Shown here: positions 5,080-54,205 of the stretch, in pieces
Numbering within the stretch: position 1 is the first letter of the stretch
How the letters are laid out: each line of letters starts with the position of its first letter
Source: Acidobacteriota bacterium
GTDB taxonomy: Bacteria > Acidobacteriota > UBA6911 > RPQK01 > CBDBID01
NCBI GenBank assembly: GCA_965205565.1
Contig: CBDBID010000040.1
Coordinates: 111,451-175,450, forward strand
Length of the DNA: 64,000 bases
Reading direction: 5' to 3'
Program-made: the position numbers and the translations under genes
Notes under the pieces: generated by a model
What the model was told of the DNA's origin: nothing
Database searches by the model: none
What the model saw: the letters and a program-made list of their open reading frames with translations, nothing else

Positions 5080-5153
5080 TGCTCCCTACCATAGATACGG
5101 GCATGTTTGCGGAGGGGGTTTGGGAGGTGAGGTCGAGGAGCGAGGAGGAGGCG

Positions 5154-5908: not shown

Positions 5909-6084
5909 ATCTCCCCGCTGATCGCCAGTTCTCACGGGAGTCGGGGACGGGCAGTCGGATCGGCCAGAATCACAGGTTGACTCTCCACTGTTCCGATCAT
6001 TGCAATAAAGGGGTGGTGCCGCGCAGCCGATTCGAAGGCTTGCGGAGCCAAATCGTAAGGAGAGTGAACAGCTGGATTGGGATT

Positions 6085-7125: not shown

Positions 7126-7615
7126 TCCGAGGGAGTCAGCGGGTGGTCCGAAGGGGTTCAGGCAGCGGAGCTGGGAAATTCCTCAGGCTTGCGGAGATCG
7201 CGAAAAATGTCACTTCTGGGCTCAGTTGTTTGGTGTTTTCAGAAGACTCTGCTATTACCGGGTCCAACGTGGAGTCTGAGGGCCGAATCCTTCCGGGCGG
7301 GGGTTTCTCTTTCTTCAGTACCCGAGGACGGGTCGTCGGGAACTTTTTTGCGACTCTACGCCATTTCTGTCATCCTTCCATCATGAACCAGGGGTGTTTT
7401 GTGTTTTGCTGGCTCGGGAGGGTGGTGAGATTTTTCCCATTCGGGTTTGATCTGAATTCTAGTTCCAGCGCGGCGCTGGAAGCCCGCCACCAGGATGCTG
7501 AAGCCATTTGAGTCGTTGGCCGGCCCGGCGAGAGATCAGAGCTTCTCGGTAGGGGTGATTTAGTCGAAACGAGCGAGCGGGATTGATTAACGGCTTGAAA
7601 ATCTTAACTATTTAG

Positions 7616-9254: not shown

Positions 9255-10186
9255 TAAATGCAGTGGCTTCCCCCAAAGTTCGGCGGCAGATCCGATTTTA
9301 CAGACTTGATGTTGAGCCGGACGAAACTGGCCATCCACAATCTGTAGATTTCCGAGAGGTTCTCAAGAAGATCGGTCGATTGCAGTTCCGACTCGGGGAG
9401 CGGTATTTGGATCTCAGTGGCGGTCAGATATTGTGCGTCTGGCCAGAGAAAGAGCAATTGAAGTCGAAACCACCACGATTGAGGTTAGGCACCGTCAGGC
9501 AGCAAGATTTACCTCAACTTGAGGACCACGGGAGGATATCTCCTCTTCGATTACAAAGCCAACAGGGCATCGTAGAACAGACGCATGTAGTCTTTTTTGA
9601 CGATGGCATTGTCGGAGTTGAGTTCAACTTTCATGGTCCACGGATTAATAGACTGGGGAGGTACTTATATGTTAGATTTCCTCATGATCTCCCCAAAATA
9701 AACTTCGACATAATTCTGAACTAGGATATCGATAAGAAGCTGGAGCATCTCCAGGATATTCATCTGGTACAATTCCGCTCAAGACGTGGTTATACAGACA
9801 GTGTGAGGCGTGCATCAGAGAGTCTTCCATCTGCTTTGCAGCAGATGGAAGATGCCGTGAGTCCTCCTGTAATAGACATTATTATGAGAAACGAACTCCG
9901 ATCCCGCAAGAGTTTAGGGAAGGCAGTCCTCGATTGGGTACGAGAGATAGCGGGAACTCCTAGCTCTCTTGAGGAGCTCGATGTTTTCAAGGTTAAAGGG
10001 ACCGATGATAGGACTGGAAGGGTTGAAAACTTTGATTTCTTAAGTGATCGATTTGTGGCTACGAAAACTGTCCATCTACAACTCGACACCCATAGAGGAA
10101 TAAAATCTGGTGAGATGTACGATGCCATCAGTGAATCTCACGCAGAGTTGAAAGATTCTCTAAATCAAGCGGCCAGTTTGTCATGA
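9255..10186 (+). pseudogene. AT-rich gene remnant: N-terminally truncated by the IS1380 insertion and carrying an internal TAG (9722-9724)
   Basis: A single frame is open from the IS end to 10186 except for one amber codon; ~45-50% GC against ~60% background; no recognisable domain. Confidence 0.4.
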
Positions 10187-10281
10187 GCACTATAATATCC
10201 TTATACCAGCGTCACTTTATGGTCGTAGACCTAATTGGATCAATGCTCTTGGCGGTGCTGATTTGGGTGGAACACAGATAC

Positions 10282-11734
10282 CTAGCAGTCCGTGGTGGAA
10301 GTACGTTTTCTGAGCTCAGGTGGTACCCACCGGTGGAAGCAGCGAAGGGGTCGCTGAGGTGGGTTTTTCGGGCCAAGCAGCCGGAATCAGTCCGAACAGG
10401 CCCTTAAGACGCTTGAACAGCGACAAAATCAGTAGCATTAGGGCGCAAATCCGCCCCTGCAGACCCCGCGGCGTTCCCACACCCAGGCTCTGACGCATCA
10501 GCATCCCCAGATTGAAGGCGCTCACCTGGATCAGCAGTCGCTTCAACACATTCTCATGTCCCCGTACATGCAGCCGTCTCATCCCTCCGCTCCCGTACAG
10601 ATGCGCACAGGGTCGCTCCAGCTGCTCTCCTCGTTGCTGCAGCAGCCGCTGCCCTCGCTCTCCCCGGATGCGCCGCCGATTCGCATACACCGCTTCCTGC
10701 CCCTGCCGGTCTCCTCGCCAGCGTCGCTTCCCTCGCCTCGGTTCGCTCACATAGCTGCGCAGTCCCACCGCATCCAGGTCCACCATCCGCTGCGTGCTGT
10801 GATACCCCTTGTCGGCCACCACCTCTTCGATGCCTCGTCCCTCCGGCAGCGCTTGTTCCACCTTCTCGACCGCTTCCGTCAGGGTCTTCACCATGGTCTG
10901 CGTGTCCCCTTGATCGGCTCCCTGTACCGTCACCGAGACAATCGCTCCGGTCTCCAGATCCACTGCATGCTCCGCCTTGTGCGCCAGGTGCGTCCGCCCG
11001 TCCTTCATTCTGGTAATCCGCGCATCCGCATCATGCGGGTGCTTCCAAACCCGGTTCGATCCTTTGCCCGTGCGCTTGCGGTCCAGTTTGGCCAGATCTT
11101 CCCGTCGCGGCGTCTCAATCCCGGAGGCTTTCGCCAGCTCCATCAAAAACTCTTCATACCCCTGCTCGCTGTCCCGGCGCACGATGCTGCGCAGCGCTGC
11201 ATTCGCTTCCAGCGTAGTGGCATCGATGCCGATCGTCTTGCCCCGCAGCAGGCCGCTCGCCCCGATCCGCTTCAGTACCCAGTCAAAGACTGCTTCGTGG
11301 GTAGCCACATCGATCAGTCGCCGGGTTCGGGAGATCGTGGAGTGATCAGACGGCGACTCGCTCAGTTTCAATCCCAGAAACTCTCGCAGTGCCAGAGAAT
11401 CAGCTGCTCTCCAGGCTATTCCTCGTTCCGATCCGATCCCTTCGAAATACCCCACCAGCAGCAGCCGAAAGTACACTCCCGGAGCCAGGCTCGGTCGCCC
11501 CATCTTGTCTGCATAGAACTTCGCACACAGTCCCTCCACGAAGTCGTCAAAACCGTGTTCGTTGAAAAGGCCATTCAGTCTTTCGTAGAAGGGATGGCCG
11601 GCGGTGCGGGGCAGCTCACTGGTGGCGACCCACAGGTCTTCTTGCTGTCGACGTTTCTTTTTCCCCATTGCCATGGGGTCAGTCTAGTGTCGCTGTGTGA
11701 CCCCTTATCCTCGACTTTCACCACGGGCTGCTAG
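10282..11734 (-). mobile_element. IS5/IS1182-family insertion sequence, copy A (1453 bp)
   Basis: Imperfect 20-bp IRs CTAGCAGTCCGTGGTGGAAG / CTTTCACCACGGGCTGCTAG; second copy at 41235-42686 with >99% identity. Confidence 0.8.
10316..11674 (-). CDS. IS5/IS1182-family transposase (452 aa, DUF772 N-terminal domain + DDE)
   Basis: FYADKMGRPSLAPGVYFRLLLVGYFEGIGSERGIAWRAADSL is the InsH-N/DUF772 signature; ADKGYHS DDE region. Confidence 0.8.
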   Translation of the reverse strand: MAMGKKKRRQQEDLWVATSELPRTAGHPFYERLNGLFNEHGFDDFVEGLCAKFYADKMGRPSLAPGVYFRLLLVGYFEGIGSERGIAWRAADSLALREFLGLKLSESPSDHSTISRTRRLIDVATHEAVFDWVLKRIGASGLLRGKTIGIDATTLEANAALRSIVRRDSEQGYEEFLMELAKASGIETPRREDLAKLDRKRTGKGSNRVWKHPHDADARITRMKDGRTHLAHKAEHAVDLETGAIVSVTVQGADQGDTQTMVKTLTEAVEKVEQALPEGRGIEEVVADKGYHSTQRMVDLDAVGLRSYVSEPRRGKRRWRGDRQGQEAVYANRRRIRGERGQRLLQQRGEQLERPCAHLYGSGGMRRLHVRGHENVLKRLLIQVSAFNLGMLMRQSLGVGTPRGLQGRICALMLLILSLFKRLKGLFGLIPAAWPEKPTSATPSLLPPVGTT

Positions 11735-11853
11735 GACTCATACCCCTCGTTACATCCTTCTCTGATAATCACCAGACTCTCTATGGCACTCTGGCTTCTG
11801 TATGTGGGTCTCTTCTGGGCTTTGTTATCACTTCTGTATCGATAATATTTTCG

Positions 11854-12114: not shown

Positions 12115-13062
12115 TCACATACTCCCCACTAAATCCTTATACCGCAAACGTTTCCCGTCCATGCCCTTCGCTACTGAGGCCATCTGGTCAATGGTATCCA
12201 AGGATCGGATGTTGTGCCGACCGGAGAACTCATTGACATACCGCTGCAGGTGCTTCTCGCTCATGCGGTGGTAGGTTCCGTAGTAGCCACGCTTCAGGAG
12301 CGCCCAGAAGCTCTCAATCCCGTTGGTGTGGGCCTGTCCCTTGACAAATTCACGGACGCTGTGACGGACGGAACTATGCTCGAAATCCAGCCAGAGCCGA
12401 TTGTAACCGCTGTGATCGTCCGTGTAGACCGTTGATCCTGGCTTGACTCGCTCCTGGATAAATCCTTCTAGTTCTTCCTGGGTGGTTCCCTGGATGACTG
12501 TGGCACTGACACGGTTGGTTTCACGATCCTTGACGCCAGCGACCGGAATCTTGCCCACGCCCCCACGACCAGCGTGAAGCCTCTTGCTAGGATGCTTGTT
12601 CTTCTCCTTGCCGCCGATGTACGTTTCGTCCACTTCGACCGGGCCGGAAAGGATCTTGTCGCCAAAGTCGAACCCTTCCCGTATGCGCTGCATCATGTGC
12701 CAGGCTGATTTCTGAGTGATGCCGAGTTCCCGGTGGACCTTCATGCTGGAGATGCCTTTGAGGTTGGTGGTCGCCATGTAAAGGACTATGGCCCAGTCCC
12801 GAATGCGGATGTTGCTGGAATGCATGGCCGTACCCTTGCGGACGCTGAAGTACTTCCGGCAATCCTTGCAGCGGTAGGGCATGGTTTTGTGATTGACTCG
12901 TGAGTACCTTTTGGACTCGCAATCAGGGCAGTGGATTCCGTTAGGCCATCTCTGCTCCTCAAACCACTTCTCAGCGGCTTCATCGGTTGGGAAAATGTCG
13001 AATAACTCTGTGATCGTCAGCCCTTTGCGGTCGGACCTTACGGGTGCTTTTGCCTTCTTCAT
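12115..13062 (-). CDS. IS1595-family (ISXO2-like) transposase
   Basis: N-terminal zinc ribbon CPDCES...CKDCRKYFS plus DDE region VEVDETYIGGKEKNKH; Met start at 13062 (MKKAKAP...), 316 aa. Confidence 0.75.
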   Translation of the reverse strand: MKKAKAPVRSDRKGLTITELFDIFPTDEAAEKWFEEQRWPNGIHCPDCESKRYSRVNHKTMPYRCKDCRKYFSVRKGTAMHSSNIRIRDWAIVLYMATTNLKGISSMKVHRELGITQKSAWHMMQRIREGFDFGDKILSGPVEVDETYIGGKEKNKHPSKRLHAGRGGVGKIPVAGVKDRETNRVSATVIQGTTQEELEGFIQERVKPGSTVYTDDHSGYNRLWLDFEHSSVRHSVREFVKGQAHTNGIESFWALLKRGYYGTYHRMSEKHLQRYVNEFSGRHNIRSLDTIDQMASVAKGMDGKRLRYKDLVGSM

Positions 13063-13250
13063 GGAAACTATAGTACCATGATAGTCTGACAGTTTTGGAA
13101 ACTTAGGTATATAATTCCCATTCTTTTTGTCATCGCATCTCCAGGCACTTCGCCAGGCCATGGACCCCTGGGTCAAACATGCCCGAACCCGGGAAGAAAG
13201 GACCGCCGAACTACAGAGACATTTGACGGTACTGCCCAAGGGTTCGGTGA

Positions 13251-41234: not shown

Positions 41235-42686
41235 TAGCAGTCCGTGGTGGAAGTACGTTTTCTGAGCTCAGGTGGTACCCACCGGTGGAAGCAGCGAAGG
41301 GGTCGCTGAGGTGGGTTTTTCGGGCCAAGCAGCCGGAATCAGTCCGAACAGGACCTTAAGACGCTTGAACAGCGACAAAATCAGTAGCATTAGGGCGCAA
41401 ATCCGCCCCTGCAGACCCCGCGGCGTTCCCACACCCAGGCTCTGACGCATCAGCATCCCCAGATTGAAGGCGCTCACCTGGATCAGCAGTCGCTTCAACA
41501 CATTCTCATGTCCCCGTACATGCAGCCGTCTCATCCCTCCGCTCCCGTACAGATGCGCACAGGGTCGCTCCAGCTGCTCTCCTCGTTGCTGCAGCAGCCG
41601 CTGCCCTCGCTCTCCCCGGATGCGCCGCCGATTCGCATACACCGCTTCCTGCCCCTGCCGGTCTCCTCGCCAGCGTCGCTTCCCTCGCCTCGGTTCGCTC
41701 ACATAGCTGCGCAGTCCCACCGCATCCAGGTCCACCATCCGCTGCGTGCTGTGATACCCCTTGTCGGCCACCACCTCTTCGATGCCTCGTCCCTCCGGCA
41801 GCGCTTGTTCCACCTTCTCGACCGCTTCCGTCAGGGTCTTCACCATGGTCTGCGTGTCCCCTTGATCGGCTCCCTGTACCGTCACCGAGACAATCGCTCC
41901 GGTCTCCAGATCCACTGCATGCTCCGCCTTGTGCGCCAGGTGCGTCCGCCCGTCCTTCATTCTGGTAATCCGCGCATCCGCATCATGCGGGTGCTTCCAA
42001 ACCCGGTTCGATCCTTTGCCCGTGCGCTTGCGGTCCAGTTTGGCCAGATCTTCCCGTCGCGGCGTCTCAATCCCGGAGGCTTTCGCCAGCTCCATCAAAA
42101 ACTCTTCATACCCCTGCTCGCTGTCCCCGCGCACGATGCTGCGCAGCGCTGCATTCGCTTCCAGCGTAGTGGCATCGATGCCGATCGTCTTGCCCCGCAG
42201 CAGGCCGCTCGCCCCGATCCGCTTCAGTACCCAGTCAAAGACTGCTTCGTGGGTAGCCACATCGATCAGTCGTCGGGTTCGGGAGATCGTGGAGTGATCA
42301 GACGGCGACTCGCTCACTTTCAATCCCAGAAACTCTCGCAGTCCCAGAGAATCAGCTGCTCTCCAGGCAATTCCTCGTTCCGATCCGATCCCTTCGAAAT
42401 ACCCCACCAGCAGCAGCCGAAAGTACACTCCCGGAGCCAGGCTCGGTCGCCCCATCTTGTCTGCATAGAACTTCGCACACAGTCCCTCCACGAAGTCGTC
42501 AAAGCCGTGTTCGTTGAAAAGGCCATTCAGTCTTTCGTAGAAGGGATGGCCGGCGGTGTGGGGCAGCTCACTGGTGGCGACCCACAGGTCTTCTTGCTGT
42601 CGACGTTTCTTTTTCCCCATTGCCATGGGGTCAGTCTAGTGTCGCTGTGTGACCCCTTATCCTCGACTTTCACCACGGGCTGCTAG
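41235..42686 (-). mobile_element. IS5/IS1182-family insertion sequence, copy B (1452 bp)
   Basis: Same IRs as copy A; 4 aa differences in the transposase; same orientation as copy A (direct repeats ~29.5 kb apart). Confidence 0.8.
41268..42626 (-). CDS. IS5/IS1182-family transposase (452 aa)
   Basis: Near-identical to 10316-11674. Confidence 0.8.
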   Translation of the reverse strand: MAMGKKKRRQQEDLWVATSELPHTAGHPFYERLNGLFNEHGFDDFVEGLCAKFYADKMGRPSLAPGVYFRLLLVGYFEGIGSERGIAWRAADSLGLREFLGLKVSESPSDHSTISRTRRLIDVATHEAVFDWVLKRIGASGLLRGKTIGIDATTLEANAALRSIVRGDSEQGYEEFLMELAKASGIETPRREDLAKLDRKRTGKGSNRVWKHPHDADARITRMKDGRTHLAHKAEHAVDLETGAIVSVTVQGADQGDTQTMVKTLTEAVEKVEQALPEGRGIEEVVADKGYHSTQRMVDLDAVGLRSYVSEPRRGKRRWRGDRQGQEAVYANRRRIRGERGQRLLQQRGEQLERPCAHLYGSGGMRRLHVRGHENVLKRLLIQVSAFNLGMLMRQSLGVGTPRGLQGRICALMLLILSLFKRLKVLFGLIPAAWPEKPTSATPSLLPPVGTT

Positions 42687-43073
42687 GAGAGTAAGAAGGT
42701 TTGACTTTCCACACCCCGAGGTAGGACTAATAACGGTATCTCTGTCGTCGTCAGCCTTCTTGATTGGGGACAAATCTATCAATTTCTTCCCGGAACCAAG
42801 TAACCACTACCCAAAGAGCCACCAGTGTCGAGCCGGTAACTGTTCCATATACATATACGAGCCAAACCATTCACTGATGTTCTTTCAAAACGAGAGGAGC
42901 CTTCGACAGGATTCGGATAGGGGGTAACAGGGGGGACTGCGTCATCGTGCTTAAGGGCTTTGCGCTTCAGGCATGCTTAATAGCTGGCGTCCACCAGTCG
43001 AGCAGGCGCATCCACGCCACCCTCTTTTAGAGCGTCTATTGCTCCGAGAACGCAGTATCTCGCGACCTAAATT

Positions 43074-43099
43074 GGGTAACTACTTACTTGACATACCAA
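43074..43099. repeat. left terminal inverted repeat of the IS1595-family unit
   Basis: GGGTAACTACTTACTTGACATACCAA; reverse complement present at 46829-46854. Confidence 0.7.
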
Positions 43100-43125
43100 A
43101 ATAACCCTGCTATTATTGTCTCATC

Positions 43126-44079
43126 ATGAGGTATCCAAAGTCATTAGTTGAGGCTGTCCGGTTCTTTTCAGACTTTGAGCGTTGCCGCCAATACATGGTG
43201 AAACTTCGCTGGCCCGACGGCAAGGTGACTTGCCCACGGTGCGGCGGGGATCGAGTCAAGTGGCTGGCAAAGGCTCGGGTATGGAAGTGCTACGCAAAGC
43301 ACAAGCAGCCCACCTTCACGCTCAAGACGGGAACGATCTTCGAGGAATCTCCTATCGGTCTGGACAAGTGGACTACGGCAATCTGGCTGGTCGCAAATTG
43401 CAAAAACGGGATTTCTTCTCTTGAGATGGCCCGCCATCTGGGAGTGACCCAGAAGACGGCATGGTTCATGAATCACCGCATCCGCAAGGCCATGCAGGAC
43501 GGGTCGTTCGTCAAGCTGGGCGGAGAGATCGAAGTCGATGAGACATTCATCGGTGGAAAGGCTCGCAATATGCACGTCTCCGCAAGGAAGCGCCGGATCA
43601 CTGGCACTGGCGGGAAGGACAAAACCGCCGTGCTGGGAATGCTGGAACGAAACGGAAGGGTCCGAACTTCCGTGATAGAGGATCGTAAGAGGCGGACCAT
43701 CCATCCCCAGGTCCGTGACCAGGTGGAGGCCGGTTCCGCACTCTATTCCGATGAGTTACTTTCATACGAAGGGCTGGCATCCGATTACGCCCACCAGGTC
43801 ATCAATCACGCAGTCGAATACGTCAGGGGTGAGGTTCATACCAATGGCATGGAGAACTACTGGTCGCTGCTCAAGCGCGGCCTCAATGGAACCTATGTCT
43901 CGGTCGAGCCGTTTCACCTGTTCCGTTACCTAGCAGAGCAAGCCTTCCGGTTCAACAACCGCGAGGCTGAGGGTGGAGACTTCGAGCGTTTCTCGATTGC
44001 GATGGCACAGGCAGTTGGTCGCAGGCTTACTTATGACGAACTGTCGGGGAGGGCACCTAGTCAAGCGACGGTTAACTAA
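43126..44079 (+). CDS. IS1595-family transposase (317 aa)
   Basis: Zinc ribbon CPRCGGDRVKWLAKARVWKC and DDE region EVDETFIGGKARNMH; diverged from the 12115-13062 copy. Confidence 0.75.
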   Translation: MRYPKSLVEAVRFFSDFERCRQYMVKLRWPDGKVTCPRCGGDRVKWLAKARVWKCYAKHKQPTFTLKTGTIFEESPIGLDKWTTAIWLVANCKNGISSLEMARHLGVTQKTAWFMNHRIRKAMQDGSFVKLGGEIEVDETFIGGKARNMHVSARKRRITGTGGKDKTAVLGMLERNGRVRTSVIEDRKRRTIHPQVRDQVEAGSALYSDELLSYEGLASDYAHQVINHAVEYVRGEVHTNGMENYWSLLKRGLNGTYVSVEPFHLFRYLAEQAFRFNNREAEGGDFERFSIAMAQAVGRRLTYDELSGRAPSQATVN

Positions 44080-44338
44080 GAAGGAGTCCGAGAGGCAGGG
44101 TCGCGGGAAGCGCCGCGACCGCTAAAGATTGATTTCATCACTGTTTGGAATCTTCTGAACGCCTCCGGCCCTTCGATCATGTTCAGCTCACTTGCCGATT
44201 TCTTGGCCTTCTGCTGAGAAGATGAGCGACTGGTACTCGCCTTAGCTTCTCTTTGCCGTGGTGGTCTTCCCAAGCGATCCTCCTCTCGAAGCAACTTTCC
44301 CCAAGAAAAGTGCATCTTACACTTTTTCAGGGAGGTTT

Positions 44339-45154
44339 TCAATCATGGGTACCGCTTTCGCAACCAAAGACCTTGGAATCAAACTCGCCAATGATCTCGG
44401 AGACACGTGTCCAGGTTTTCCAGAGAAGTTGTACAAGGTTCCATCTAACCCCGGAGACAAGGTGGAACTTCTCAAACCCTACCGAGAAGCAAGGATATGC
44501 CTTTATCTCCTCGTCCGCTCGGCCAACGGGGAACGTTCCAAAAATCACCTCATCTTCTTTCAGCAACGCGTTCCCGTCCACGTGGAACAGCGGTGTGCTC
44601 TTGTTCCCTGTGTGTGCGGCCAATGTGCCGAACACAATAAGCGTTGTGGGGATGATTCTATGCTTGTCGGTGTTGTGGAGTTCTCTGAGAACCCAGAGCA
44701 TATCATCGTGCGGGGCACGGGGGATTCGTTCGTAAGGCTGTTCCCTCTCTATGAGAGATGCTTGGAGCGGGGATACACCTTCTATCATTCCGCCCGATCT
44801 GGATCTATACCCGCTCCTGGTTTTGAAGATGGGAAACTGGAGTCTTCCCTCTTTCTGGAGATCAAGACTGGGTTCGTTCAAAAGCACGATCTGATGAACG
44901 AGATGGTCAAGACTAGATCGCAAGTGGTACAGGGCCTCCCCGGCCAACAAGACGATATTGATATCGAGCTTGAAGCTGGGGTTTCTGACTGCGGTAAGCG
45001 TTACGGCGGGACTCCCTTTCTCCGATTTTTCATCGACTCGGATGGTGTATGGTTCACGCTTTGTAAGCTGGTCAAGGTGCCCATTCAGGTCGTTGATTAT
45101 GGTTTTGGCCCGTTCAATTTTGAGGCGGATTCCTTCTAGCGGATCAATCATCAC
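44339..45154 (-). CDS. hypothetical passenger protein (271 aa), co-operonic with the methyltransferase-HNH gene
   Basis: Its start overlaps the MTase stop (ATGA, 45151-45154); contains RELHNTDKHR (possible HEPN-like Rx4-6H); is fully overlapped by an antisense 293-aa ORF. Confidence 0.4.
   Translation of the reverse strand: MMIDPLEGIRLKIERAKTIINDLNGHLDQLTKREPYTIRVDEKSEKGSPAVTLTAVRNPSFKLDINIVLLAGEALYHLRSSLDHLVHQIVLLNEPSLDLQKEGRLQFPIFKTRSGYRSRSGGMIEGVSPLQASLIEREQPYERIPRAPHDDMLWVLRELHNTDKHRIIPTTLIVFGTLAAHTGNKSTPLFHVDGNALLKEDEVIFGTFPVGRADEEIKAYPCFSVGFEKFHLVSGVRWNLVQLLWKTWTRVSEIIGEFDSKVFGCESGTHD
44345..45139 (+). CDS. alternative antisense ORF (264 aa from the ATG at 44345) overlapping the 271-aa gene
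   Basis: GGGAGG RBS 8 nt upstream of the ATG; a stop-free stretch of ~290 codons in ~50% GC DNA is unexpected by chance. Confidence 0.25.
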   Translation: MGTAFATKDLGIKLANDLGDTCPGFPEKLYKVPSNPGDKVELLKPYREARICLYLLVRSANGERSKNHLIFFQQRVPVHVEQRCALVPCVCGQCAEHNKRCGDDSMLVGVVEFSENPEHIIVRGTGDSFVRLFPLYERCLERGYTFYHSARSGSIPAPGFEDGKLESSLFLEIKTGFVQKHDLMNEMVKTRSQVVQGLPGQQDDIDIELEAGVSDCGKRYGGTPFLRFFIDSDGVWFTLCKLVKVPIQVVDYGFGPFNFEADSF

Positions 45155-46801
45155 TCAAAAAGGCTCGGATTCATCTCGTGTTCCCGCCGGATCTTCCGCA
45201 TGATCGGGTTCTCTCTTTCTGAATCCGCCATGTAGCCCAGCTTCTTGTTCTGCCTTCTCAGTCCGATCAGCGTTAGCGTGTTGCTCTTGAGCCGGTTGCA
45301 CGGGCTGCAGAGCAGAATCCGGTTTGACAGTTCGTTCGAGCCGCCGTCCGAGCGCGGCTGCCGGTGGTCCAGTTCCAGGTAACGGGGATCGTCAAACTTC
45401 CGGTCGCACCCCTGGCACTTGGGGCCGTGCTCGATGATGAGCTGGTGAAACATCGCCGTCCGGCTGAGGGTGGATTCTCTCGGCTCGTGCTTGGAGTATT
45501 TCACCTTGAGGAATGGGGCCGCAATCTGTCCGTCATCGGTGCGCTTTGGGGTCCGCTTACGATAGTAAATCTTATCGAACGCAAGCTTGTCCCTAGCGTG
45601 TCCCTTCACCTCAAAATACTCTTCCCTGAATCTGTCCAGAACTACCTCATGCGCCCTGTCCCAAATGTCAATGCCTACCCATTGGCGATCAGCCAACTCA
45701 GCCGCAACGCAGGTAGTCGCACAGCCACAGAAGGGGTCAAGCACCATGCTTCCCTTCTTGGAGCTGGCTTGGTTGATTCGGTTGTAAAGGGTTAGTGGCT
45801 TCTGTGTTGCGTAGCCGGTGCTTTCATCTTTCCCGGCAGGTGCAATGTCGGTCCACAGATTGGGAACGGCTTGTTGCGGAATGCCTTGCAAATAGCGTTT
45901 GAGTCTCGGCTTTCCGTTGCGTGTCCAGTGTATTAACCCTACCTTGTCTAGTGCGTGGCACTTGCCGAGTTGGTCAAGTTTGCTGTAGCCGCTTCCCAAC
46001 AAGTCTTTTTCCCAATCTGGCAGTTTCGATATTTGCGGTGGCGCCCATGCTCTCCCGGCTGGCGGCGGCATGTCATTGAACGCCCTATAAGCCTCTTCGC
46101 TGCCCGCCTTGCCGCCGCTTAAATCAGTTGTTGTAAATCGTCCGCGCTCATCTTTTTGGGTGTAAAGAGCATCAATCTGATCTTCTGTCATGGGCGTATA
46201 GTCTCCCCTGAAAACGAACTTGCCGCTTTTCGGGTAGAACAGGATGCAATCCGTGATCGCTTCGTACTTGCGAATGGACAGCGGGTGTGCGTTGGTGCGT
46301 CTCCAAACAATCTCATTCTTGAAGCTCTTCCACCCGAATATCGCATCCATAGATCGCCTTGAGGTAGTGGCTGGCCGTGGGGTCGCAGTGGAGGTACAGC
46401 GAACCGGTAGGCTTTAACACGCGGTGCATTTCCAAGAGCCGCACGGCCATGAAACACAGAAAGGCTCCCATGTCTGACCCAACTTCCTCCCTGGACCGTT
46501 TCAGGTTCTTCTTGGTCTGTCTCATGTAGATCGCGTTAGCCGCGTCAATCACTTCCCAGACAGGAGGGAAATCGTCTTTGATCTTGTCCACCCAGTCTTG
46601 ATGCACGTCCCGATCCCAGGACCAGCGGTCCTGAAATCGTGCACCCTGTGCTAGGCTGTCGGGCGTGGCGTGAAAGTCTCGACCCTTGTTGAACGGTGGA
46701 TCGGTGGCGATGAGGTCCACGGTCCCGCTGTTCATGGCACGAAGGAACAACAGGTTATCGCCGTGGAATAGAGTGCGGTTTTTCCAGTTGGCTGTAGGCA
46801 T
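45151..46801 (-). CDS. N4/N6 DNA methyltransferase (PF01555 type) fused to a C-terminal HNH endonuclease domain; frameshift in the 46313-46350 overlap
   Basis: N-terminal part (46313-46801): DLIATDPPFN (motif IV). C-terminal part (45151-46350): DPFCGCATT (motif I) then ELDHRQPRSDGGSNELSNRILLCSPCNRLKS (HNH). The two ORFs overlap by 38 nt in different frames. Confidence 0.6.
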
Positions 46802-46828
46802 CCCAGAAGGGATGCTAGACTAGGTATG

Positions 46829-46854
46829 TTGGTATGTCAAGTAAGTAGTTACCC
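46829..46854. repeat. right terminal inverted repeat of the IS1595-family unit
   Basis: TTGGTATGTCAAGTAAGTAGTTACCC is the reverse complement of 43074-43099. Confidence 0.7.
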
Positions 46855-46930
46855 TAAATTGTCTAGACTTTCTGCTTCCTTTTTCACATCAAGCAAATAG
46901 GCTTCTACTTTATCGATGTCCAAGGTTTTC

Positions 46931-47764
46931 TTATCCAAAGTGGTGTTTCTTCTTCTCGTTAAGGAAAGCACCAATTTCCCCAGGTTGGTAAGGGACAACA
47001 GCGCCTATTGTCCCGGGGGCGTAACGAGAAAGACTGGCAGAGATTGTTTCGATTTCATGATCTTGAATTGGCGGATCAACATGGTATTTCTTGATTATGA
47101 GAAGACATTCGAAGATTGCCTCTCGACACAGACCTACCCTTCGAAGCGTTCCTCCGATACTAGTAAGTGTTGCGTTTCTCTTGCCCTTGGAGATCATCCC
47201 TTTCTCTCCGCTTATTACTTGTCTAGCGGGTGCTTCCAACAAAAGCGGGAGCAGGAAACCACGCAGAGGAGCTAATCGGACTTTATTAGCCCATTGATAT
47301 TTATTTCCATTAACATGAACTGAAGGCGGAACCACGACGTAGCCACCCTCACCACGGACGTCTATCCGCTCTCGGAATCCTGTCTTGTTGCGGATCAATT
47401 GGCCTTCGGGATACTCGAAAAACAGCTGTGATCCTCTTCCAGTTTTCTGTTCCAGGGTTTCGGGAAACCTACCCAGCTCGTTTTGTAATTCGTAGAAAGC
47501 TTCTTGTCGATCAATATCTAGAACCACTAAACCTGAAGCCTCTCCTGTAGGCATTCCGATGTTCGCTTTAGGCCATTGCTCCAACCAATCTTTTATGACT
47601 GATGCGTCACAAGTGGCGTCTTTTAACCCTCGGCTTGTCAGCGGGTGCTTTCCTGGACTTGAGCACTTCGCCTTTCCACAGGAACAGGCTCTGTCCTCAG
47701 GCCAGTAGAGAGGAAGAATTAGCTTTCCCTTCTTGGCGTATTTAAGTGCTTCCTTGAATGTCAT
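46931..47764 (-). CDS. bifunctional DNA primase/polymerase (Prim-Pol) N-terminal domain protein
   Basis: LPLYWPEDRACSCGKAKCSSPGKHPL...ANIGMPTGEASGLVVLDIDR matches the PF09250 pattern; typical of plasmids, phages and integrative elements. Confidence 0.55.
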   Translation of the reverse strand: MTFKEALKYAKKGKLILPLYWPEDRACSCGKAKCSSPGKHPLTSRGLKDATCDASVIKDWLEQWPKANIGMPTGEASGLVVLDIDRQEAFYELQNELGRFPETLEQKTGRGSQLFFEYPEGQLIRNKTGFRERIDVRGEGGYVVVPPSVHVNGNKYQWANKVRLAPLRGFLLPLLLEAPARQVISGEKGMISKGKRNATLTSIGGTLRRVGLCREAIFECLLIIKKYHVDPPIQDHEIETISASLSRYAPGTIGAVVPYQPGEIGAFLNEKKKHHFG

Positions 47765-48108
47765 TTCTTCGCTAGAGGCTTTAATAGAGATCCTGGGTTG
47801 AGCGACTTTAGCTTTGCTGGTGTTGTTTCCAGCGCTGTAGAGAACTTCTCTATTTCTTTGTTTTCGGCTTTGATATGTCCGTTTTCAATCAATGAATTTT
47901 TTAAGAGGGGATGCCAGTCTTTTCAGCCAAGTCCCACTGCGTCAGGCCAGCCCAGTGTCGAGCGACTTTTAATGATTTCATGCCTCCCATTACATCCAAT
48001 ATAGGGGTTAACAGCAAACTAATTTGTTAGTAATTATAAGAAAATAACGGATATCCGGAACTATCCGGCCCTAAGTCCGGCCCTGCTGGTTAAAATCGAT
48101 GGGAAGGG

Positions 48109-48609
48109 TTACGAGGAGGTAGATTCACCACGTTTCGCAAGAAGCTTTAGGAGGGACTCTGATTTAATTGAACCAGTAGGGAGTTTCTCTAGTTTTCCCT
48201 GTTTCTCAAGCTTACGGATCCACCTAGTTCCAACGCGGAGGCGCTCAGCAGCCATCACCTGAGTAACCTTGAAATCCACTTGAAGACTCTGATCTATCTC
48301 CCGCATGCGATCATTGTTTACGGATTTGTATCGACCTAGCTCATTTGGCAGTTCTTGTTTTATGGCTACCGACAGTGCTCGAGCGTTCTCGTCAGTACGT
48401 ACTCCTTCTTCTCTAAGATTTCGGTCTGTGTCACTCAGTAGTTTGTCGAAGCAGTATTGTGCACTGAATCTATCAATAGGTATTTTTTCCATGAAGATAT
48501 GCCCGCCAGTCACTTTCAAAGTGGTCCACATTCCAAACTGTACTGATCTCTTTAAACCACTTGTCGAAGGTGTAGTTGAGCATAGCTGGGTTGCTTGATA
48601 GCTCTTCAT
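48109..48609 (-). CDS. hypothetical protein with C-terminal HTH (excisionase/MerR-like)
   Basis: VTQVMAAERLRVGTRWIRKLEKQGKLEKLP resembles a DNA-binding HTH; AT-rich. Confidence 0.35.
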   Translation of the reverse strand: MKSYQATQLCSTTPSTSGLKRSVQFGMWTTLKVTGGHIFMEKIPIDRFSAQYCFDKLLSDTDRNLREEGVRTDENARALSVAIKQELPNELGRYKSVNNDRMREIDQSLQVDFKVTQVMAAERLRVGTRWIRKLEKQGKLEKLPTGSIKSESLLKLLAKRGESTSS

Positions 48610-48861
48610 AAGTAATGGGGAATCCAGGGGGTCTATTATCTGCTTTTATACTGAACCCATACACCACCGCCACTCTCGTGATATTACGCACTAACCAATG
48701 AAAATCTGGCTTGTTAGGACGATCATCTACCATTTGCTATCCCCTGCCGCACAAGGGTTAGCCCCACAGCCAGTGCAGCGATCTAACCGGAGAGGATAGA
48801 TCTGACTATGGGGCCTTCAGAACACCTAATTAGACTGCCTGTTACTTAAATTCTATCGCTT

Positions 48862-49542
48862 CTATTTATTTGTCCCTCCCTCCTTTTGATCCGGGTTGAT
48901 CCAGGTTCTGAGAATCTGGCCGGAAGAAAAGACCGGACACTTCTTCTTCAGGTATTGAAGTCCAAGGGCATGATTTTCCTCACTTCGAGAGGCTACCGCG
49001 TCTTCGACAATCACCGGGTAATAACCGTGCTGGATCATGTCCACGGCTGTCTTGAGCACGCACCCGTCCGTCTCGCAATCCATCAATAGCAAACTTTTAA
49101 GGCCACGGCTTTTCAGCATATTATCCAGAGAAGTATTGTAGATGGCGCTGGCTCGGCTTTTCTAAATCACCATATCCTCAGCTCTGGGAGCAAGCTCGTC
49201 GACGGTTTGGGCTTCCCAGCTACCCTCCACCACATCGGAGATCCACTCCTGAGCCGAGTGCAGGAGCAGGTTAGGCCCGTCCACCAGCGTCAGGCCACCA
49301 CGATTCCTGTGAACGAACTCAGCGTAGCTTATGAGCAGTCCCAACCGGCGGCCCGCTCCCAAAATCCTGGCGATAGTGGAGATGATCCTCTGGATTCCCG
49401 AAATGTCGGTCCGATGCCTAGCATAGCCTCCCCGCTGGTCTGCAATTTCGTTCTGCATATCGATCACCAGGATGGCGCTGGAGTCAGGATTAACCAGTTC
49501 TTCCAGACTGTTCAAGACCTCTACTGCGTGGATTGTGATCAT
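48862..49542 (-). pseudogene. isochorismatase-family hydrolase interrupted by a single in-frame TAG (49162-49164)
   Basis: SAILVIDMQNEIADQRGGY (N-terminal part) and LLLMDCETDGCVLKTAVDMIQHGYYPVIVEDAVAS (C-terminal part with catalytic Cys) lie in the same frame separated only by an amber codon. Confidence 0.55.
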
Positions 49543-49679
49543 AGGATTTCTCCGTTTGAGTAATGAGTAAATACTCGGCGGCCAACTCCGCAATGTGAAA
49601 TGAGAGACCAGAGGAGAAAGCAAGACACAATTCGGAAAAGACAAAGTTGAGGGCTAGTAGAGGAAGCAATTTATCCCCG

Positions 49680-50168
49680 TTAATAATTCTTTCCCTTCGG
49701 CTTCCACTCACGTGATAGCCGTTGTGCCTCAGAAATCTGTTCCTGAGTCATATTCTTTTCTAGTTCGTTGAGCACCTTGAGGGTCCGTTCTCTGGCGTTG
49801 TCTTCAGTGAAGTTGGAGACACCTAAATTGTGCCACATGTATGCAAGTAAGTAATCTCTGGGGACTCCTCCGCCTTTGGCGTACATCACCCCTAGGTTAT
49901 ATTGAGCGTGGGCAATACCTTGATCAGCAGCCTGGTACCACTTAGTACCTTGATCAGCAGCCTTGCGGTACCACTTAACGGCTTCCTTGTAGTCTTTGGG
50001 GACTCCTTGGCCGTCGTGGTACATTGCCCCTACTACAAATTGGGCCAGGGCGTCACCTTGTTGAGCAAGGCGGAGTTGGTACTCGAAGAATTCACTTTGG
50101 GCATAACCGCCTGCCCCAAGAATCACCAGTGTCAGAAAGAAAAAGGGCAGCTTGCGTAGAGTGGCCAT
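49680..50168 (-). CDS. Sel1-repeat (SLR/TPR-like) secreted protein
   Basis: Signal peptide; repeats with A..G...A...LG.MY..G.GV..DY.EA..WY.KAA.QG; internal 23-bp tandem duplication at 49931-49975. Confidence 0.6.
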   Translation of the reverse strand: MATLRKLPFFFLTLVILGAGGYAQSEFFEYQLRLAQQGDALAQFVVGAMYHDGQGVPKDYKEAVKWYRKAADQGTKWYQAADQGIAHAQYNLGVMYAKGGGVPRDYLLAYMWHNLGVSNFTEDNARERTLKVLNELEKNMTQEQISEAQRLSREWKPKGKNY

Positions 50169-50323
50169 GAGCTAACCTCAAGCACACATTGGGTATTTAC
50201 AGTTGAAAATAATCCTAGCAGCCAGCAGTGTGAAGGTCAAACCGGGCTAAAGAAGGCTAACCAAAGGGCATTTAGCAAGCGGGACAAATTTGGGAAAGGA
50301 AAAGTTGAAGAAGGATAAATATA

Positions 50324-50806
50324 TTAATTAACCTTCTTAGATTCTACTTCAACAATCATCGTATCAACATTGGGGTCAAAGCTTTCAGCAATCGATCTTG
50401 CTCGTTCGCTCGGAGGGAGAAGAAAAATAGGCATTTCTCGCTTAGCGTCGGATTTCTTTTCTAACAAACCATTGATCTTGGCGAGCAGTTCGTAGTTCGC
50501 ACGGAGCTCCTTCCCAGCACTCAAACAAATCCTCAGATCACCGTTCTCCCGTGCCTTCCTAAGAATCTCTTGGAATACATCCTCTAGAGCAACGATCTTC
50601 CCTAGTAACCTGTCCGCATGAGTTAGCTCTCCAGCCTTCTCTGCTTTCGCTACAGTCTTTGCTAAGTGTTGGTTCTTGTGACGCTGTAGGGCAGATGTAG
50701 ACAAACGATTCCGTGCCGCTATCTCCCGCAAAGGTTCTCCATTGACCAAGGAAAGCTCGATGGATTCTTTGTTTTCGTGGATACAAACACTACATTTCTG
50801 AGCCAT
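50324..50806 (-). CDS. hypothetical zinc-ribbon/HTH protein (phage small-terminase- or regulator-like)
   Basis: N-terminal CSVC...LSTSALQRHKNQH; no confident family. Confidence 0.3.
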   Translation of the reverse strand: MAQKCSVCIHENKESIELSLVNGEPLREIAARNRLSTSALQRHKNQHLAKTVAKAEKAGELTHADRLLGKIVALEDVFQEILRKARENGDLRICLSAGKELRANYELLAKINGLLEKKSDAKREMPIFLLPPSERARSIAESFDPNVDTMIVEVESKKVN

Positions 50807-50944
50807 ATTTGTTAGGGAATTATAGTGCCACGGAACGACATGTTACGGATGCGTGTCAAATATGGTTGTTTACCGAGAAAACAATACTGCTCCAATAAAA
50901 AACGGGGTCAAGGTATAGAGGAGAGATCCTGAAAGGGCATATAA

Positions 50945-52403
50945 TCCCCATTCACCATATGGGACACTCATCGTGCCTCCCTATATCACCCTAACCCATT
51001 ATAATTACAGCAGATATAATCTATGAAAGAGGGCAAGAAATGGCTAACCCAAAGGGTGAAGGTATGAAGCTTGGTATTGATGGCAGTCTGAGGCTTGAAT
51101 TTCATGGGGCAAAGGTCACATCGGATGCCGGACTTCTCGCCTATCGTGACCTGGACGAGGCGTTGGCTTTATTCGATAGTGTACCCTCAGTTTTTGACGA
51201 TTCGCGGACCGGGCGCAACATCCAGCACCACCTCGCGTCGTTGCTGCGCCAATCAGTATACAGCCGCCTGGCTGGCTATGAAGATGTCAACGATGGTCAT
51301 CGTTTATCGGTGGATCCGACTATGCGGAGGATCACTGGAAAGAAGATCGACAAGAAGAATGCCGCCAGTGCCAACACAATGGGTCGATTTGAGACCCAGA
51401 TGCTGTCTGTTAAGGACAACCTCAAAGCCCTTTCGGAAGTCAATGGCCAATGGGTGGAACGAGCACTGGAGAAGACCGCTCATCGACGAATCATTCTGGA
51501 TATGGACAGTTCAGCCAGCCCGGTCCATGGCGAGCAAGAAGACTCTGCCTACAACGGCCATTTTGGATGCACCTGCTACCATCCCCTGTTTTGTTTTAAC
51601 CAGTTCGGAGATTGCGAAGGTGCAATGCTTCGCCCCGGCAACGTTCACAGCGCGGATCGCTGGAAGGAGCTACTGGAACCAATCGTGGCTCGCTACGAGA
51701 AGAAGAAAGTCCGCAAATACTTTCGGGGGGATGCCGCCTTCGCCAAGCCGGAGATTTATCAATACCTGGAGAAGAAAGGCTTTTTGTATGCCATCCGGCT
51801 TCCCGCCAACCAGGTGCTTCAAGAAAAGATTGAACACCTGCTGACCCGGCCAGTGGGTCGTCCACCCCGAAAACCCGTCGTCTGGTTTGCCGATTTCAGC
51901 TATCAAGCCGCCAGTTGGGACCGGCCTCGACGGGTGATTGCCAAGGTCGAGTGGCATCGCGGCGAACTCTTTCCGAGAGTCGGTTTCATCGTGACCAATA
52001 TGAGCGCGCAAGCTCCAGGGGTGGTTCACTTTTACAATGGGCGTGGCACCGTCGAGCAGTGGATCAAGGAAGGCAAGTATGCGTTGAACTGGACACGACT
52101 CTCCTGCCAGCGCTTTGTCCCGAATCAGGTGAGGTTGGGTCTGTTCGTTTTGGCCTCTCGGATTGACCGCTTGAGATGGAGTACGGCTTAAGCGTCGAGT
52201 GTTTCTGACCAAGTGGGTGGAGAAGTGTCTCCGCTTATCGGATTTTGCCGAGATGACCTGGATAATCGAGGGATCAGAGGCCTTTTTCAGCCGACCCATG
52301 AGGGCAAACACTTGCTCCCTGGTCGGAGGGCTGATAGGTTTTGATTTCCACCACGGTGAGACCCGAAGAAGGTTAATCACAGGCTGATATGAGGAATGTC
52401 GGT
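50945..52403 (+). mobile_element. IS1380-family insertion sequence, copy 2 (internal ~180-bp deletion at the transposase 3' end)
   Basis: Same termini as copy 1 (TCCCCATTCACCATATGGG ... GATATGAGGAATGTCGGTT); the transposase lacks the 60 residues LAYNLGNF...AELLS present in copy 1. Confidence 0.8.
51040..52191 (+). CDS. IS1380-family transposase, C-terminally deleted variant (383 aa)
   Basis: Identical to the 7827-9158 product apart from a 60-aa deletion and 2 aa substitutions. Confidence 0.75.
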   Translation: MANPKGEGMKLGIDGSLRLEFHGAKVTSDAGLLAYRDLDEALALFDSVPSVFDDSRTGRNIQHHLASLLRQSVYSRLAGYEDVNDGHRLSVDPTMRRITGKKIDKKNAASANTMGRFETQMLSVKDNLKALSEVNGQWVERALEKTAHRRIILDMDSSASPVHGEQEDSAYNGHFGCTCYHPLFCFNQFGDCEGAMLRPGNVHSADRWKELLEPIVARYEKKKVRKYFRGDAAFAKPEIYQYLEKKGFLYAIRLPANQVLQEKIEHLLTRPVGRPPRKPVVWFADFSYQAASWDRPRRVIAKVEWHRGELFPRVGFIVTNMSAQAPGVVHFYNGRGTVEQWIKEGKYALNWTRLSCQRFVPNQVRLGLFVLASRIDRLRWSTA

Positions 52404-52820
52404 TTGAAGCAACGGTTCTTATCGACCGCCTGCGAGCAGAACCCTTGGGGTGAGCACGTGGCTCTCCAGCGAATGCAGGCCCACTGGGGTGTGCACTCCA
52501 GCAGCTCGAACTCATCGTAGCCGGGTGTGTTGCCCAGATAGCTCAGCACGGCTTCTACATCGTCGTCACTGGGGTTGTGGATGGCTGCCACCTCTTCGAT
52601 CATCGACCGCTCCAGCTCAAAACCGCCTGGCGACACCCCGGAACACCTTTGGGATTGCTCAGATCATCGTCCACCAGGTCACGGCCCAGTTCGGTTCAAT
52701 GTTCTTCATGCGGGACTTTGTCTTCGTGAACTCCATTTACCGGGGAAAAGACTATATAGTCTTTTTTGTAGGGGTTTGGACTGATTAGAAACGGAACAAC
52801 GGGTAAATTAAACTCCCGTT

Positions 52821-53150
52821 CTATTCCCGTTCTTTTCGGGACCAGCGGTCCTCGTTGAGGGCTTTGATGACGGCTTCCTTCAGAAAGGTGTCATCCTGCA
52901 CTTCAACCCAGGTACAGCTGAACAGACTTTTTCGCCTGCGCCTTACGATTGGAGAGGGAATCAACTCGAAGTCGAGGTTACGGAGTAGATCGTAGAATAT
53001 CTCGGTGTCGTAGAAATCCCTCTTCTTTTTGATGTGTTTTCTGACTATCCTCTTTCGGATCCTAATTTCCTTAACCGGTTTCCTCCCGGCCTTGCGAGGG
53101 ACGTCCCGCTTGAGGCCCCTTAATAGCTTTCTGATTTCCCTCTCACTCAT
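52821..53150 (-). CDS. hypothetical highly basic small protein (109 aa)
   Basis: Lys/Arg-rich N-terminus; AT-rich; start overlaps the stop of the upstream 172-aa ORF (ATGA). Confidence 0.3.
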   Translation of the reverse strand: MSEREIRKLLRGLKRDVPRKAGRKPVKEIRIRKRIVRKHIKKKRDFYDTEIFYDLLRNLDFELIPSPIVRRRRKSLFSCTWVEVQDDTFLKEAVIKALNEDRWSRKERE

Positions 53151-53665
53151 GTTGTGGAGATACTGGGCTTCGTCCTCGAAAAAGGGATATCAGCAGCCCT
53201 CATCTCAGTGTGATGGACCATTCGCTCAAGGCTTCGATGAAGAGTTGTCTTAACCTGCTCAAAGACCCACGAAAAGAACTCTATCCCGGGAGTTCCTGGG
53301 CCGGACCAAGCCTTTCGATACGCCTCAATTTCCGCCTTCAGCCGCTTCTCTGTCGATCGTCTCCAGCCCTTGACATCAATCGAGTTATCTTTGACCCATC
53401 CCTCAGACTCCTCTTCAAACTGAAATTGCTCCCTTGCTTCGTCAAGCAAATCGCTGAGATGGCCTATGTCGAGCTTTTGGAGAAAGAAGGAATCTTGCTG
53501 GGCAGTCGAGTTTGATTGAAGGATCGCGTAGATGAGATCTGGGTCGGGGGAGGAAAAACTGAAAGAAGATGGTACTTCAGAATCGATGCTTTCGAGCGGA
53601 TCTTTGCTCGGGCCCTTAGACTTGTGCTTAGCCACTTCGACCCCTCCTGCAAGGGCCGGCCCCAC
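53147..53665 (-). CDS. hypothetical protein (172 aa)
   Basis: AT-rich ORF co-oriented with 52821-53150; no motif. Confidence 0.3.
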   Translation of the reverse strand: MGPALAGGVEVAKHKSKGPSKDPLESIDSEVPSSFSFSSPDPDLIYAILQSNSTAQQDSFFLQKLDIGHLSDLLDEAREQFQFEEESEGWVKDNSIDVKGWRRSTEKRLKAEIEAYRKAWSGPGTPGIEFFSWVFEQVKTTLHRSLERMVHHTEMRAADIPFSRTKPSISTT

Positions 53666-53729
53666 AGCCAGCCAGAGGATCCAACTTATGAAGCTGGCTC
53701 TGGCTGTGAGACCAAGTCTTTCGCTATAG

Positions 53730-53885
53730 AACCAACATTCCTCATATCAGCCGGTGATGAACCTTCTTCGGGTCTCACCGTGGTGAATAATCAAAACCTA
53801 TCAGCTCTCCGACCAGGGAGCAAGTGTTTCCCCTCATGGGTCGGCTGGAAAAGGCCTCTGATCCCTCGATTATCCAGCACCTCCG
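53730..53885 (-). repeat. solo fragment of the IS1380-family 3' non-coding tail
   Basis: AACCAACATTCCTCATATCAGCC...GGCAAACACTTGC matches 7616-7830, 40290-40500 and 52195-52403. Confidence 0.6.
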
Positions 53886-54070
53886 CTCGCGAGAGTGGAG
53901 AGCTTCTATCTACCCGGCCTTCCCGAGGATAGACGCGACAGCCGGGGTTGCTCTTTAAGGGGCTACTGAAGCCGGGCAAAAAATGCACCCTATGCGCACC
54001 CTGGACCAATTGGGCTCGACGGGAGCAGATCAGGAGATTCCCCTAAAGTATTGAAAATATTAAAGAAAGA

Positions 54071-54147
<77 letters not shown>

Positions 54148-54205
54148 ACTCTTGGCGAGTTGACCGGCCAAAGCTCAGCCGGCTTGGCAGCGCTTATTGT
54201 ACTGA

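Follow-up and report, generated by a model that had tools for sequence, protein, structure and literature searches.

Structure of the element and its related copies

We analysed a 64,000-nt stretch of an Acidobacteriota bacterium genome (assembly GCA_965205565.1, contig CBDBID010000040.1, positions 111,451 to 175,450 of the forward strand), hereafter called the window, whose positions are used as coordinates throughout unless another contig is named. At 43075-46853, a 3.8-kb unit bounded by terminal inverted repeats contains an IS1595-family transposase gene on the plus strand and, on the minus strand, a gene encoding a methyltransferase fused to an HNH nuclease domain (methylase-HNH) followed by a gene for a 271-aa protein (Table 1). 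As argued below, the unit is very likely a transporter insertion sequence (transporter IS, tIS) of the IS1595 family with two independent passenger modules, namely the 271-aa protein and the methylase-HNH protein.

The terminal repeats (GGTAACTACTTACTTGACATACCAA) are 25 bp long and match without mismatches, and this sequence occurs twice in the window, compared with 0.00 occurrences expected from 100 shuffles. The same ends recur in three contigs with related units (L001, L004, L005) and in a set of sibling elements (L086-L098). A preliminary description of the locus, made from the sequence alone, had reported perfect 26-bp inverted repeats and an 8-bp direct duplication, and had made its reading depend on whether both could be reproduced. 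Both were recovered here and also found in related copies, with CTAAATTG present on both sides of the unit, but the repeats are shorter than described, as the 26th base (43074/46854) is the G/C of the duplication. In siblings L094 and L096, whose duplications end in A and begin with T, respectively, all eight positions still match, which places the start of the repeat at GGTAAC and sets the length of the duplication at 8 bp. The alternative of a 26-bp repeat with a 6-bp duplication was rejected, since L094 and L096 keep complete 8-bp matches where the flanking base is not G/C.

The transposase was assigned to the IS1595 type in the preliminary description, and this agrees with its matches, all above cut-off, to PF12762 (DDE_Tnp_IS1595; 1.1e-42, 146 bits against a cut-off of 27), to the NCBIfam model transpos_IS1595 (NF033547; 1.2e-58, 198.5 bits against 75) and, in its N-terminal residues 18-57, to the zinc ribbon PF12760 (1.4e-8, 35 bits against 25.4). 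Within the IS1595 family, an N-terminal zinc ribbon is missing solely from the IS1016 group. The transposase is of equal length in the window, L001, and L004, it carries GMENYWSLLKR (E-x6-K) and EQAFR, and the ends of the element read GGTAACTAT. The features of the IS1595 family, the N-terminal zinc ribbon among them, have been summarised (PMC8101967), and the DDE domain, the zinc ribbon, the inverted repeats, and the 8-bp duplication are all present in the unit.

Three further contigs, all metagenomic, were reached via P0001, which among homologues is closest to the 271-aa protein (82% identical), and via the closest full-length methylase-HNH proteins (P0060, 97%; P0061, 80%). They hold units with the same ends and gene order and with different 8-bp duplications (Table 1), so that the search for the same repeat-bounded unit elsewhere, as proposed in the preliminary description, was productive. 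Together with the window, they represent four independent insertions of the complete unit, and the passengers, which lie inside the repeats in all four copies, transpose with the element. Four copies with differing duplications imply that the whole unit moves with its cargo, that is, as a tIS. The unit is therefore a genuine carrier of passenger genes, as had been claimed, and it is a real IS1595-family insertion sequence that is probably still mobile. Two of the copies have received insertions of their own: in L005, the repeat and the methylase gene are separated by an IS5-like element, and in L001, a second IS1595-family element, GC-rich and degenerate (~5645-6750), lies inside the methylase gene with the duplication AAAGAATT. 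An empty target site was sought in viral contigs, and no uninterrupted allele was found there.

The sibling elements comprise 13 metagenome contigs with the same repeat sequence, and their transposases are ~65% identical. Siblings with both ends on the contig are 2.6-3.8 kb long, and 8-bp duplications were found in six of these seven, the seventh being L089 (the same element as L092). The duplications of the siblings and of the main units fit an AT-rich palindromic target, ~CWWNNWWG. The cargo of the siblings includes DUF3800 proteins (L094, L095), a protein with a weak HEPN match (L096), a GIY-YIG-like open reading frame (ORF) with a 299-aa ORF (L087), and a Dam-type methylase with a 435-aa ORF (L090). 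Beside the transposase 3' end, the window unit also contains a small ORF whose C-terminal motif is found at the same place in L001, L004, and L005, and in siblings L087, L089-L096, and L098, where it takes the form M(I/L)EGxEAxxRFxxxLKxxLS (44079-44200, minus strand, in the window). Since the motif is present in most siblings whatever their cargo, the small ORF belongs to the backbone of the element; it has no match in Pfam, NCBIfam, or PHROGs.

Table 1. Coordinates of the unit, of neighbouring insertion sequences, and of the related units (positions on L001, L004, and L005 are those of the respective contig)
Sequence	Feature	Position	Strand	Remarks
Window	IS5/IS1182-like element beside the unit	41268-42626		
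Window	Left target-site duplication CTAAATTG	43067..43074	.	Identical to 46854-46861
Window	Left terminal inverted repeat GGTAACTACTTACTTGACATACCAA	43075..43099	+	Perfect 25-bp match to reverse complement of 46829-46853
Window	IS1595-family DDE transposase, 317 aa, apparently intact	43126..44079	+	PF12762, PF12760, NF033547
Window	Small ORF, up to 88 aa	44076..44342	-	C-terminal motif MIEGPEAxxRFxxxMKxI; conserved beside transposase 3' end
Window	271-aa passenger protein	44339..45154	-	Probable ATG start 45151; putative HEPN-like helical core, variable beta-rich C-terminal part
Window	Methyltransferase-HNH, C-terminal 399 aa	45151..46350	-	Target-recognition region, S-adenosylmethionine (AdoMet)-binding motifs, HNH; 97% identical to intact 548-aa P0060
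Window	Single extra base (T, coding strand)	46351..46351	-	1-nt gap in global alignment with intact L004 gene
Window	N-terminal methyltransferase part	46352..46801	-	Catalytic motif TDPPF; N6_N4_Mtase positions 1-64 (5.7e-8)
Window	Right terminal inverted repeat	46829..46853	-	Pairs with left repeat
Window	Right target-site duplication CTAAATTG	46854..46861	.	Identical to left copy
Window	IS4-like transposase	51040-52191		
L001	Related unit	5191-10018		Duplication CCAATTAG
L004	Related unit	7951-11666		Duplication CTTTATAG; intact 548-aa methylase-HNH
L005	Related unit	6284-11791		Duplication CTTCCAAG; intact 549-aa methylase-HNH

The 271-aa passenger family

At TGATG (45149-45153), the stop codon of the methylase gene and the start of the 271-aa ORF overlap, and in L004 the overlap is 29 nt. 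Translational coupling of the two genes, as claimed in the preliminary description, is thus plausible. Hidden Markov model (HMM) searches of the 271-aa protein and of the divergent L004 allele against Pfam and PADLOC, as suggested in the preliminary description, and against NCBIfam and PHROGs gave no family match, and a Pfam search of 42 family members returned nothing but noise at E<=1. Likewise, no record was found by exact look-up of the window protein or of P0004. A family profile built from 42 homologues retrieved 20,750 cluster representatives with E<=1e-3, of which 16,493 reach E<=1e-10; these are clusters at 50% identity whose listed members are mostly ~250-290 aa long.

A 293-aa antisense ORF (44258-45139, plus strand) spans the whole 271-aa gene exactly in register. 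It is likewise present in L001 (7980-8831), in L005 (9743-10543), where the public gene caller chose it, and in L004, despite the divergent allele. The sense gene has 0-1 TTA/CTA/TCA codons compared with ~5 expected from neighbouring genes, which is a weak depletion. The antisense ORF was rejected as a real gene, since the conserved family motifs and the homologues lie on the minus strand.

A scan of one genome per species identified 263 loci of the family, mostly in soil Acidobacteriota, Chloroflexota, Actinomycetota, and others, and the following neighbourhood figures refer to the best 80 of these 263. An IS1595-family transposase, 31-58% identical to that of the window, is directly adjacent in 24 of the 80 loci and none is adjacent in the other 56, while a methyltransferase match of any kind was found in only two. 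In at least 15 loci, the transposase and the 271-aa homologue together lie within a terminal repeat pair, of either the GGnAAnTAT...CTTGAC type or the CACACATATCCC type, and a perfect 8-bp duplication. Most such elements are 1.9-2.4 kb long and hold only these two genes. Since the adjacency and the repeat-enclosed loci recur, the 271-aa family counts as a recurrent passenger of IS1595 elements in its own right. The other immediate neighbours vary, including type I S subunits (in three loci), other transposases, helix-turn-helix (HTH) proteins, and housekeeping genes. No adjacent antitoxin, whether MNT or other, was found beside members of the family, the compact ~2-kb elements holding two genes only. 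Searches with tblastn gave no match in phage records and only two weak Streptomyces matches, annotated as hypothetical, in plasmids, and profile comparison revealed no relationship between the family and the sibling cargo proteins of L096 and L089.

On contig L049, a 1,066-bp unit (4084-5149) with 16-bp inverted repeats (two mismatches) and a perfect 8-bp duplication, GGGGATTG, contains only a 271-aa homologue and no transposase, and may be a non-autonomous cassette. On contig L002 (4563-14253), a 46%-identical homologue (P0007) is located between hsdR and hsdS of a type I restriction-modification (RM) operon that also has DUF3037 and HipA_2 genes.

The AlphaFold model of the 271-aa protein is confident, with a predicted local distance difference test score (pLDDT) of 90 and a predicted template modelling score (pTM) of 0.87. 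Both termini form long helices, and a second long helix carries the motif RSSLDH; the fold further comprises a beta-hairpin, a number of short helices, and a beta-rich part at residues 171-227. A Foldseek search of the PDB with this model found nothing significant, and the family profile had 0 matches among PDB sequences. In BFVD, Foldseek identified two unnamed viral proteins with the whole fold in common (E 1.6e-9, TM 0.59). Across 179 members, R79 of the RSxLDH motif is conserved in 177 (99%), D83 in 98%, and D163-K164-H165 in 97-99%. Most genomic matches to the protein span only residues 1 to ~170, and for this reason the beta-rich C-terminal part is regarded as the variable part of the protein. 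With moderate confidence, the modelled fold and conserved residues suggest that the 271-aa protein may be a HEPN-like, nuclease-type effector combined with a variable sensor.

The methyltransferase-HNH gene and the relation between the passengers

In the window, the methylase-HNH region is split into two ORFs, one of 162 aa (46313-46801), which runs on out of frame to 46313, and one of 399 aa (45151-46350). The N6_N4_Mtase profile divides at their junction, being cut between position 64 in the first and position 66 in the second (positions 66-217, 1.1e-21), and the gene is therefore frameshifted. Compared with the L004 gene, that of the window has an additional base at 46351 and differs by a 3-nt in-frame indel close to the start and by 31 substitutions, which affect 12 synonymous and 14 non-synonymous codons. 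If the extra base is removed, a 549-aa frame results, with TDPPF, the C-terminal AdoMet-binding region, and a complete HNH motif. TDPPF is motif IV of the N6-adenine type. The N-terminal methylase part is 96.7% identical to residues 1-149 of P0060, and the HNH domain (PF01844, 2.7e-12) retains the CxxC...DH...N...CxxC pattern of catalytic and zinc-binding residues. The fusion of methyltransferase and HNH in one gene, as previously described, is thus seen intact in L004 (548 aa) and L005 (549 aa), whereas in the window the single gene is interrupted by the 1-nt insertion; by the same token, the intact methyltransferase expected of a Type II RM system is found in those two copies but not in the window copy. 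The frameshift is either very recent or an assembly error. Programmed frameshifting at 46351 was rejected, as a slippery sequence is absent and the nearest relative has an uninterrupted frame.

The IS nested in the L001 methylase gene is located within 1-9 nt of the codon boundary of the window insertion at 46351 (HYIKEL/MDAVFG compared with HYLKAI/MDAIFG). In both copies, an ATG-started C-terminal ORF with the target-recognition region and HNH stays open despite the interruption, and the closeness of the two interruptions may reflect coincidence or selection. The L001 site is AT-rich, which fits the target preference of such elements.

The methylase-HNH fusion itself belongs to a family with more than 3,686 matches, mostly of ~500 aa, that combine PF01555 and PF01844, and members of this family also occur without the 271-aa protein. 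P0071 (L099) is a solitary fusion among metabolic and housekeeping genes. P0062 (L100) lies in another IS1595 unit (5325-8660), which has a perfect 25-bp repeat, GGGAATTATAAAGAAAGGTTGACAA, but no clean duplication, and which contains a small ORF and a truncated transposase and lacks a 271-aa homologue.

Comparison of the related units indicates that the two passengers are separable. The DNA of the window and of L004 shows 94% identity across the transposase part and 98% across the methylase-HNH part, whereas the 271-aa gene segment gives no DNA alignment. The encoded proteins have the same motifs but are only 32% identical in their N-terminal 167 residues. Between the window and L001, by contrast, the 271-aa protein is shared (82%) and the target-recognition region of the methylase has diverged beyond the reach of blastn. 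Modules are thus reshuffled between near-identical elements by recombination. As the two comparisons differ in opposite segments, the partner allele and the methylase specificity region reassort independently, which argues against a partner that reads the same DNA sequence as the methylase.

These observations bear directly on the earlier reading, in which the methylase-HNH and 271-aa proteins form one dedicated RM or abortive infection (Abi) system, with the 271-aa protein as its effector or specificity partner. The two genes do lie on the same strand, overlapping in the window and in L004, in methylase-HNH-then-partner order in four of four units, and one 271-aa homologue occurs inside a type I RM operon. 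However, the family is found with any methyltransferase in two of 80 loci as against 24 of 80 for the transposase, the fusion occurs alone (L099) and without the partner in an IS1595 unit (L100), and 97%-identical methylase-HNH proteins are paired with partner alleles only 32% identical, the target-recognition region and partner allele reassorting independently. A single two-gene system is therefore unlikely. Of the defence-type cargo proposed in the preliminary description, the resemblance to conflict or defence genes remains, given the methylase-HNH fusion, the HEPN-like core, and RSxLDH, but the role as a single system is not supported.

It is also improbable that the 271-aa protein is an accessory or retention factor for transposition in the IS1595 clade (a regulator, a target-choice factor, or a retention nuclease) rather than cargo. 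Such a role would be consistent with at least 15 compact elements from several phyla in which the gene, invariably within the terminal repeats, accompanies transposases that have diverged to 31-58% identity, and with the repeat-bounded unit of L049 that holds this gene alone. On the other hand, siblings with identical repeats carry other cargo, which implies that transposition does not require the gene; an adjacent IS1595 transposase is lacking in 56 of 80 loci, and one homologue lies in a type I RM operon. In addition, the gene can be oriented in tandem with the transposase or convergently to it, and a variable C-terminal half is more typical of the sensor or target-recognition part of a conflict protein. 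Finally, a chance juxtaposition of a plain 1-kb IS1595 element with resident genes, the distal repeat being a solo end or that of another copy, has the other IS elements close by in the window as its sole pointer and is ruled out by the three other contigs with the same full unit and their own 8-bp duplications, while no internal right end follows the transposase and the duplication flanks the full 3.8 kb.

We therefore favour a tIS whose cargo consists of two independent modules and not of one system, although several points weigh against parts of this reading. The gene order and overlapping stop and start kept in four units would also fit functional coupling, and the roles of both cargo proteins are putative. 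The histidine of the Rx4H motif, H84, is conserved in only 158 of 179 members (88%; Y in 12, Q in 4), and a Pfam search of 42 members gave no profile match to a described HEPN family. The possible HEPN-like Rx4-6H motif of the preliminary description corresponds to RSxLDH, and the relationship to HEPN proteins is putative. For the methylase-HNH protein, PADLOC matched methylase models only and no restriction-enzyme model. The module in the window is not intact as sequenced, because the methylase is frameshifted, and the frameshift at 46351 could be an assembly error. As to the transposase, the candidate subgroup is ISNwi1, an ISfinder group with passenger genes whose end consensus is ggnnatTAT and whose catalytic signature is DDEK (+ER4); the ends and the E-x6-K motif are compatible with it.

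By analogy with other members of the family, the DDE transposase with its N-terminal zinc ribbon would recognise the 25-bp terminal repeats, and the whole 3.8-kb unit would have been inserted at AT-rich ~CWWNNWWG sites with duplication of 8 bp. In the tIS reading, the 271-aa protein would be a hallmark passenger of this IS1595 clade, perhaps acting as a conditionally active nuclease-type toxin or Abi effector that benefits the element. The methylase-HNH protein would be a single-chain N6-adenine methyltransferase-HNH fusion added in this lineage, possibly a self-contained RM or addiction-like module with its specificity in its own target-recognition region; in the window copy, it would be inactivated by the 1-nt insertion, or appear so because of a sequencing error. 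A further step, which we put forward only tentatively, is that the 271-aa family might be the signature companion gene of the IS1595 clade, a nuclease-type effector with an R/D/H and D-K-H centre and a hypervariable sensor, carried for the benefit of the IS in anti-phage abortive infection or element retention.

Genomic setting, known systems and significance

The unit is inserted ~70 bp downstream of a Prim-Pol gene (46931-47764). It sits in a stretch of low GC content (46-52 kb, 0.48-0.50, compared with 0.56-0.60 elsewhere) beside tRNA-Ala (54072-54147). Besides the IS5/IS1182-like element and the IS4-like transposase of Table 1, the region contains a DUF3631 fragment and, in the island at 46000-54150, Sel1-repeat and isochorismatase-like ORFs; housekeeping genes follow, encoding a SurA-like peptidyl-prolyl isomerase (PPIase) and MreB. 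Overall, the region looks like an integrated mobile element that gathered IS insertions. Elsewhere in the window, a second IS1595-family transposase (12115-13239, minus strand; 36% identical), for which terminal repeats were sought and none found, adjoins a second copy of the IS5/IS1182-like element (10316-11674, minus strand).

The term transporter IS was introduced for IS1595-family elements with passenger genes, and tIS of this family were reportedly treated by Siguier, Gagnevin and Chandler in 2009. According to a later survey, only the IS1595 and IS66 families contain tIS (TnCentral preprint 10.1101/2021.05.26.445724), and the passenger types cited for them are transcription regulators, methyltransferases, and resistance genes (PMC11891212). 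The window element resembles IS1595 tIS in its single zinc-ribbon DDE transposase, short inverted repeats, 8-bp duplication, 3.8-kb size, and non-transposition passengers inside the repeats. Its cargo, in contrast to that of described IS1595 tIS, consists of a methylase-HNH fusion and a HEPN-like 271-aa family without a named HMM model. Our literature search, in which the methylase-HNH fusion was sought by name, found no paper on either cargo family.

Transposon-like RM units with inverted repeats and 8-bp duplications, and allelic diversity of target-recognition domains, were described by Furuta, Abe and Kobayashi (2010; PMC2853133), including a Neisseria example in which 26/26-bp repeats and an 8-bp duplication accompany a gene with a transposase motif. 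The window element is similar in that a methylase and a nuclease lie inside a compact repeat-bounded unit with an 8-bp duplication. Unlike those units, however, it has an intact, family-assignable transposase and a mobility backed by four copies, its beta-class methylase and HNH nuclease form one polypeptide rather than a type II pair or a type IIG enzyme, and it contains a second, unrelated passenger. Both tIS and transposon-like RM units are thus already described, and the window element joins them with apparently uncharacterised cargo families.

With HEPN toxins and Abi proteins (HEPN-MNT, e.g., SO_3166, and LsoA/RnlA), the 271-aa family shares an R-x4-H motif (RSxLDH) and an association with mobile elements and, occasionally, RM operons. 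It differs from them in having no HEPN HMM match, no PDB Foldseek match, and no adjacent MNT or other antitoxin, in the conservation of H84 at only 88% alongside a separate D-K-H triad at 97-99%, and in an extra beta-hairpin and beta-rich domain inserted in the fold.

As a clean and well-documented case, the element illustrates where insertion sequences border on transposons, with a 1-kb IS backbone that carries swappable conflict genes between soil bacteria. It also draws attention to two abundant, apparently uncharacterised families, the methylase-HNH fusion and the HEPN-like family of ~260 aa, of which the best lead is the latter, the large unannotated 271-aa family riding in IS1595 elements. 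If either family is an immune or addiction module, few self-mobile carriers of such modules would be as small as the compact ~2-kb two-gene elements, which would also be easy targets for laboratory work. Should the 271-aa protein prove to be an IS-borne effector, a simple IS would act as a widespread carrier of a new immune or addiction module consisting of a single gene.

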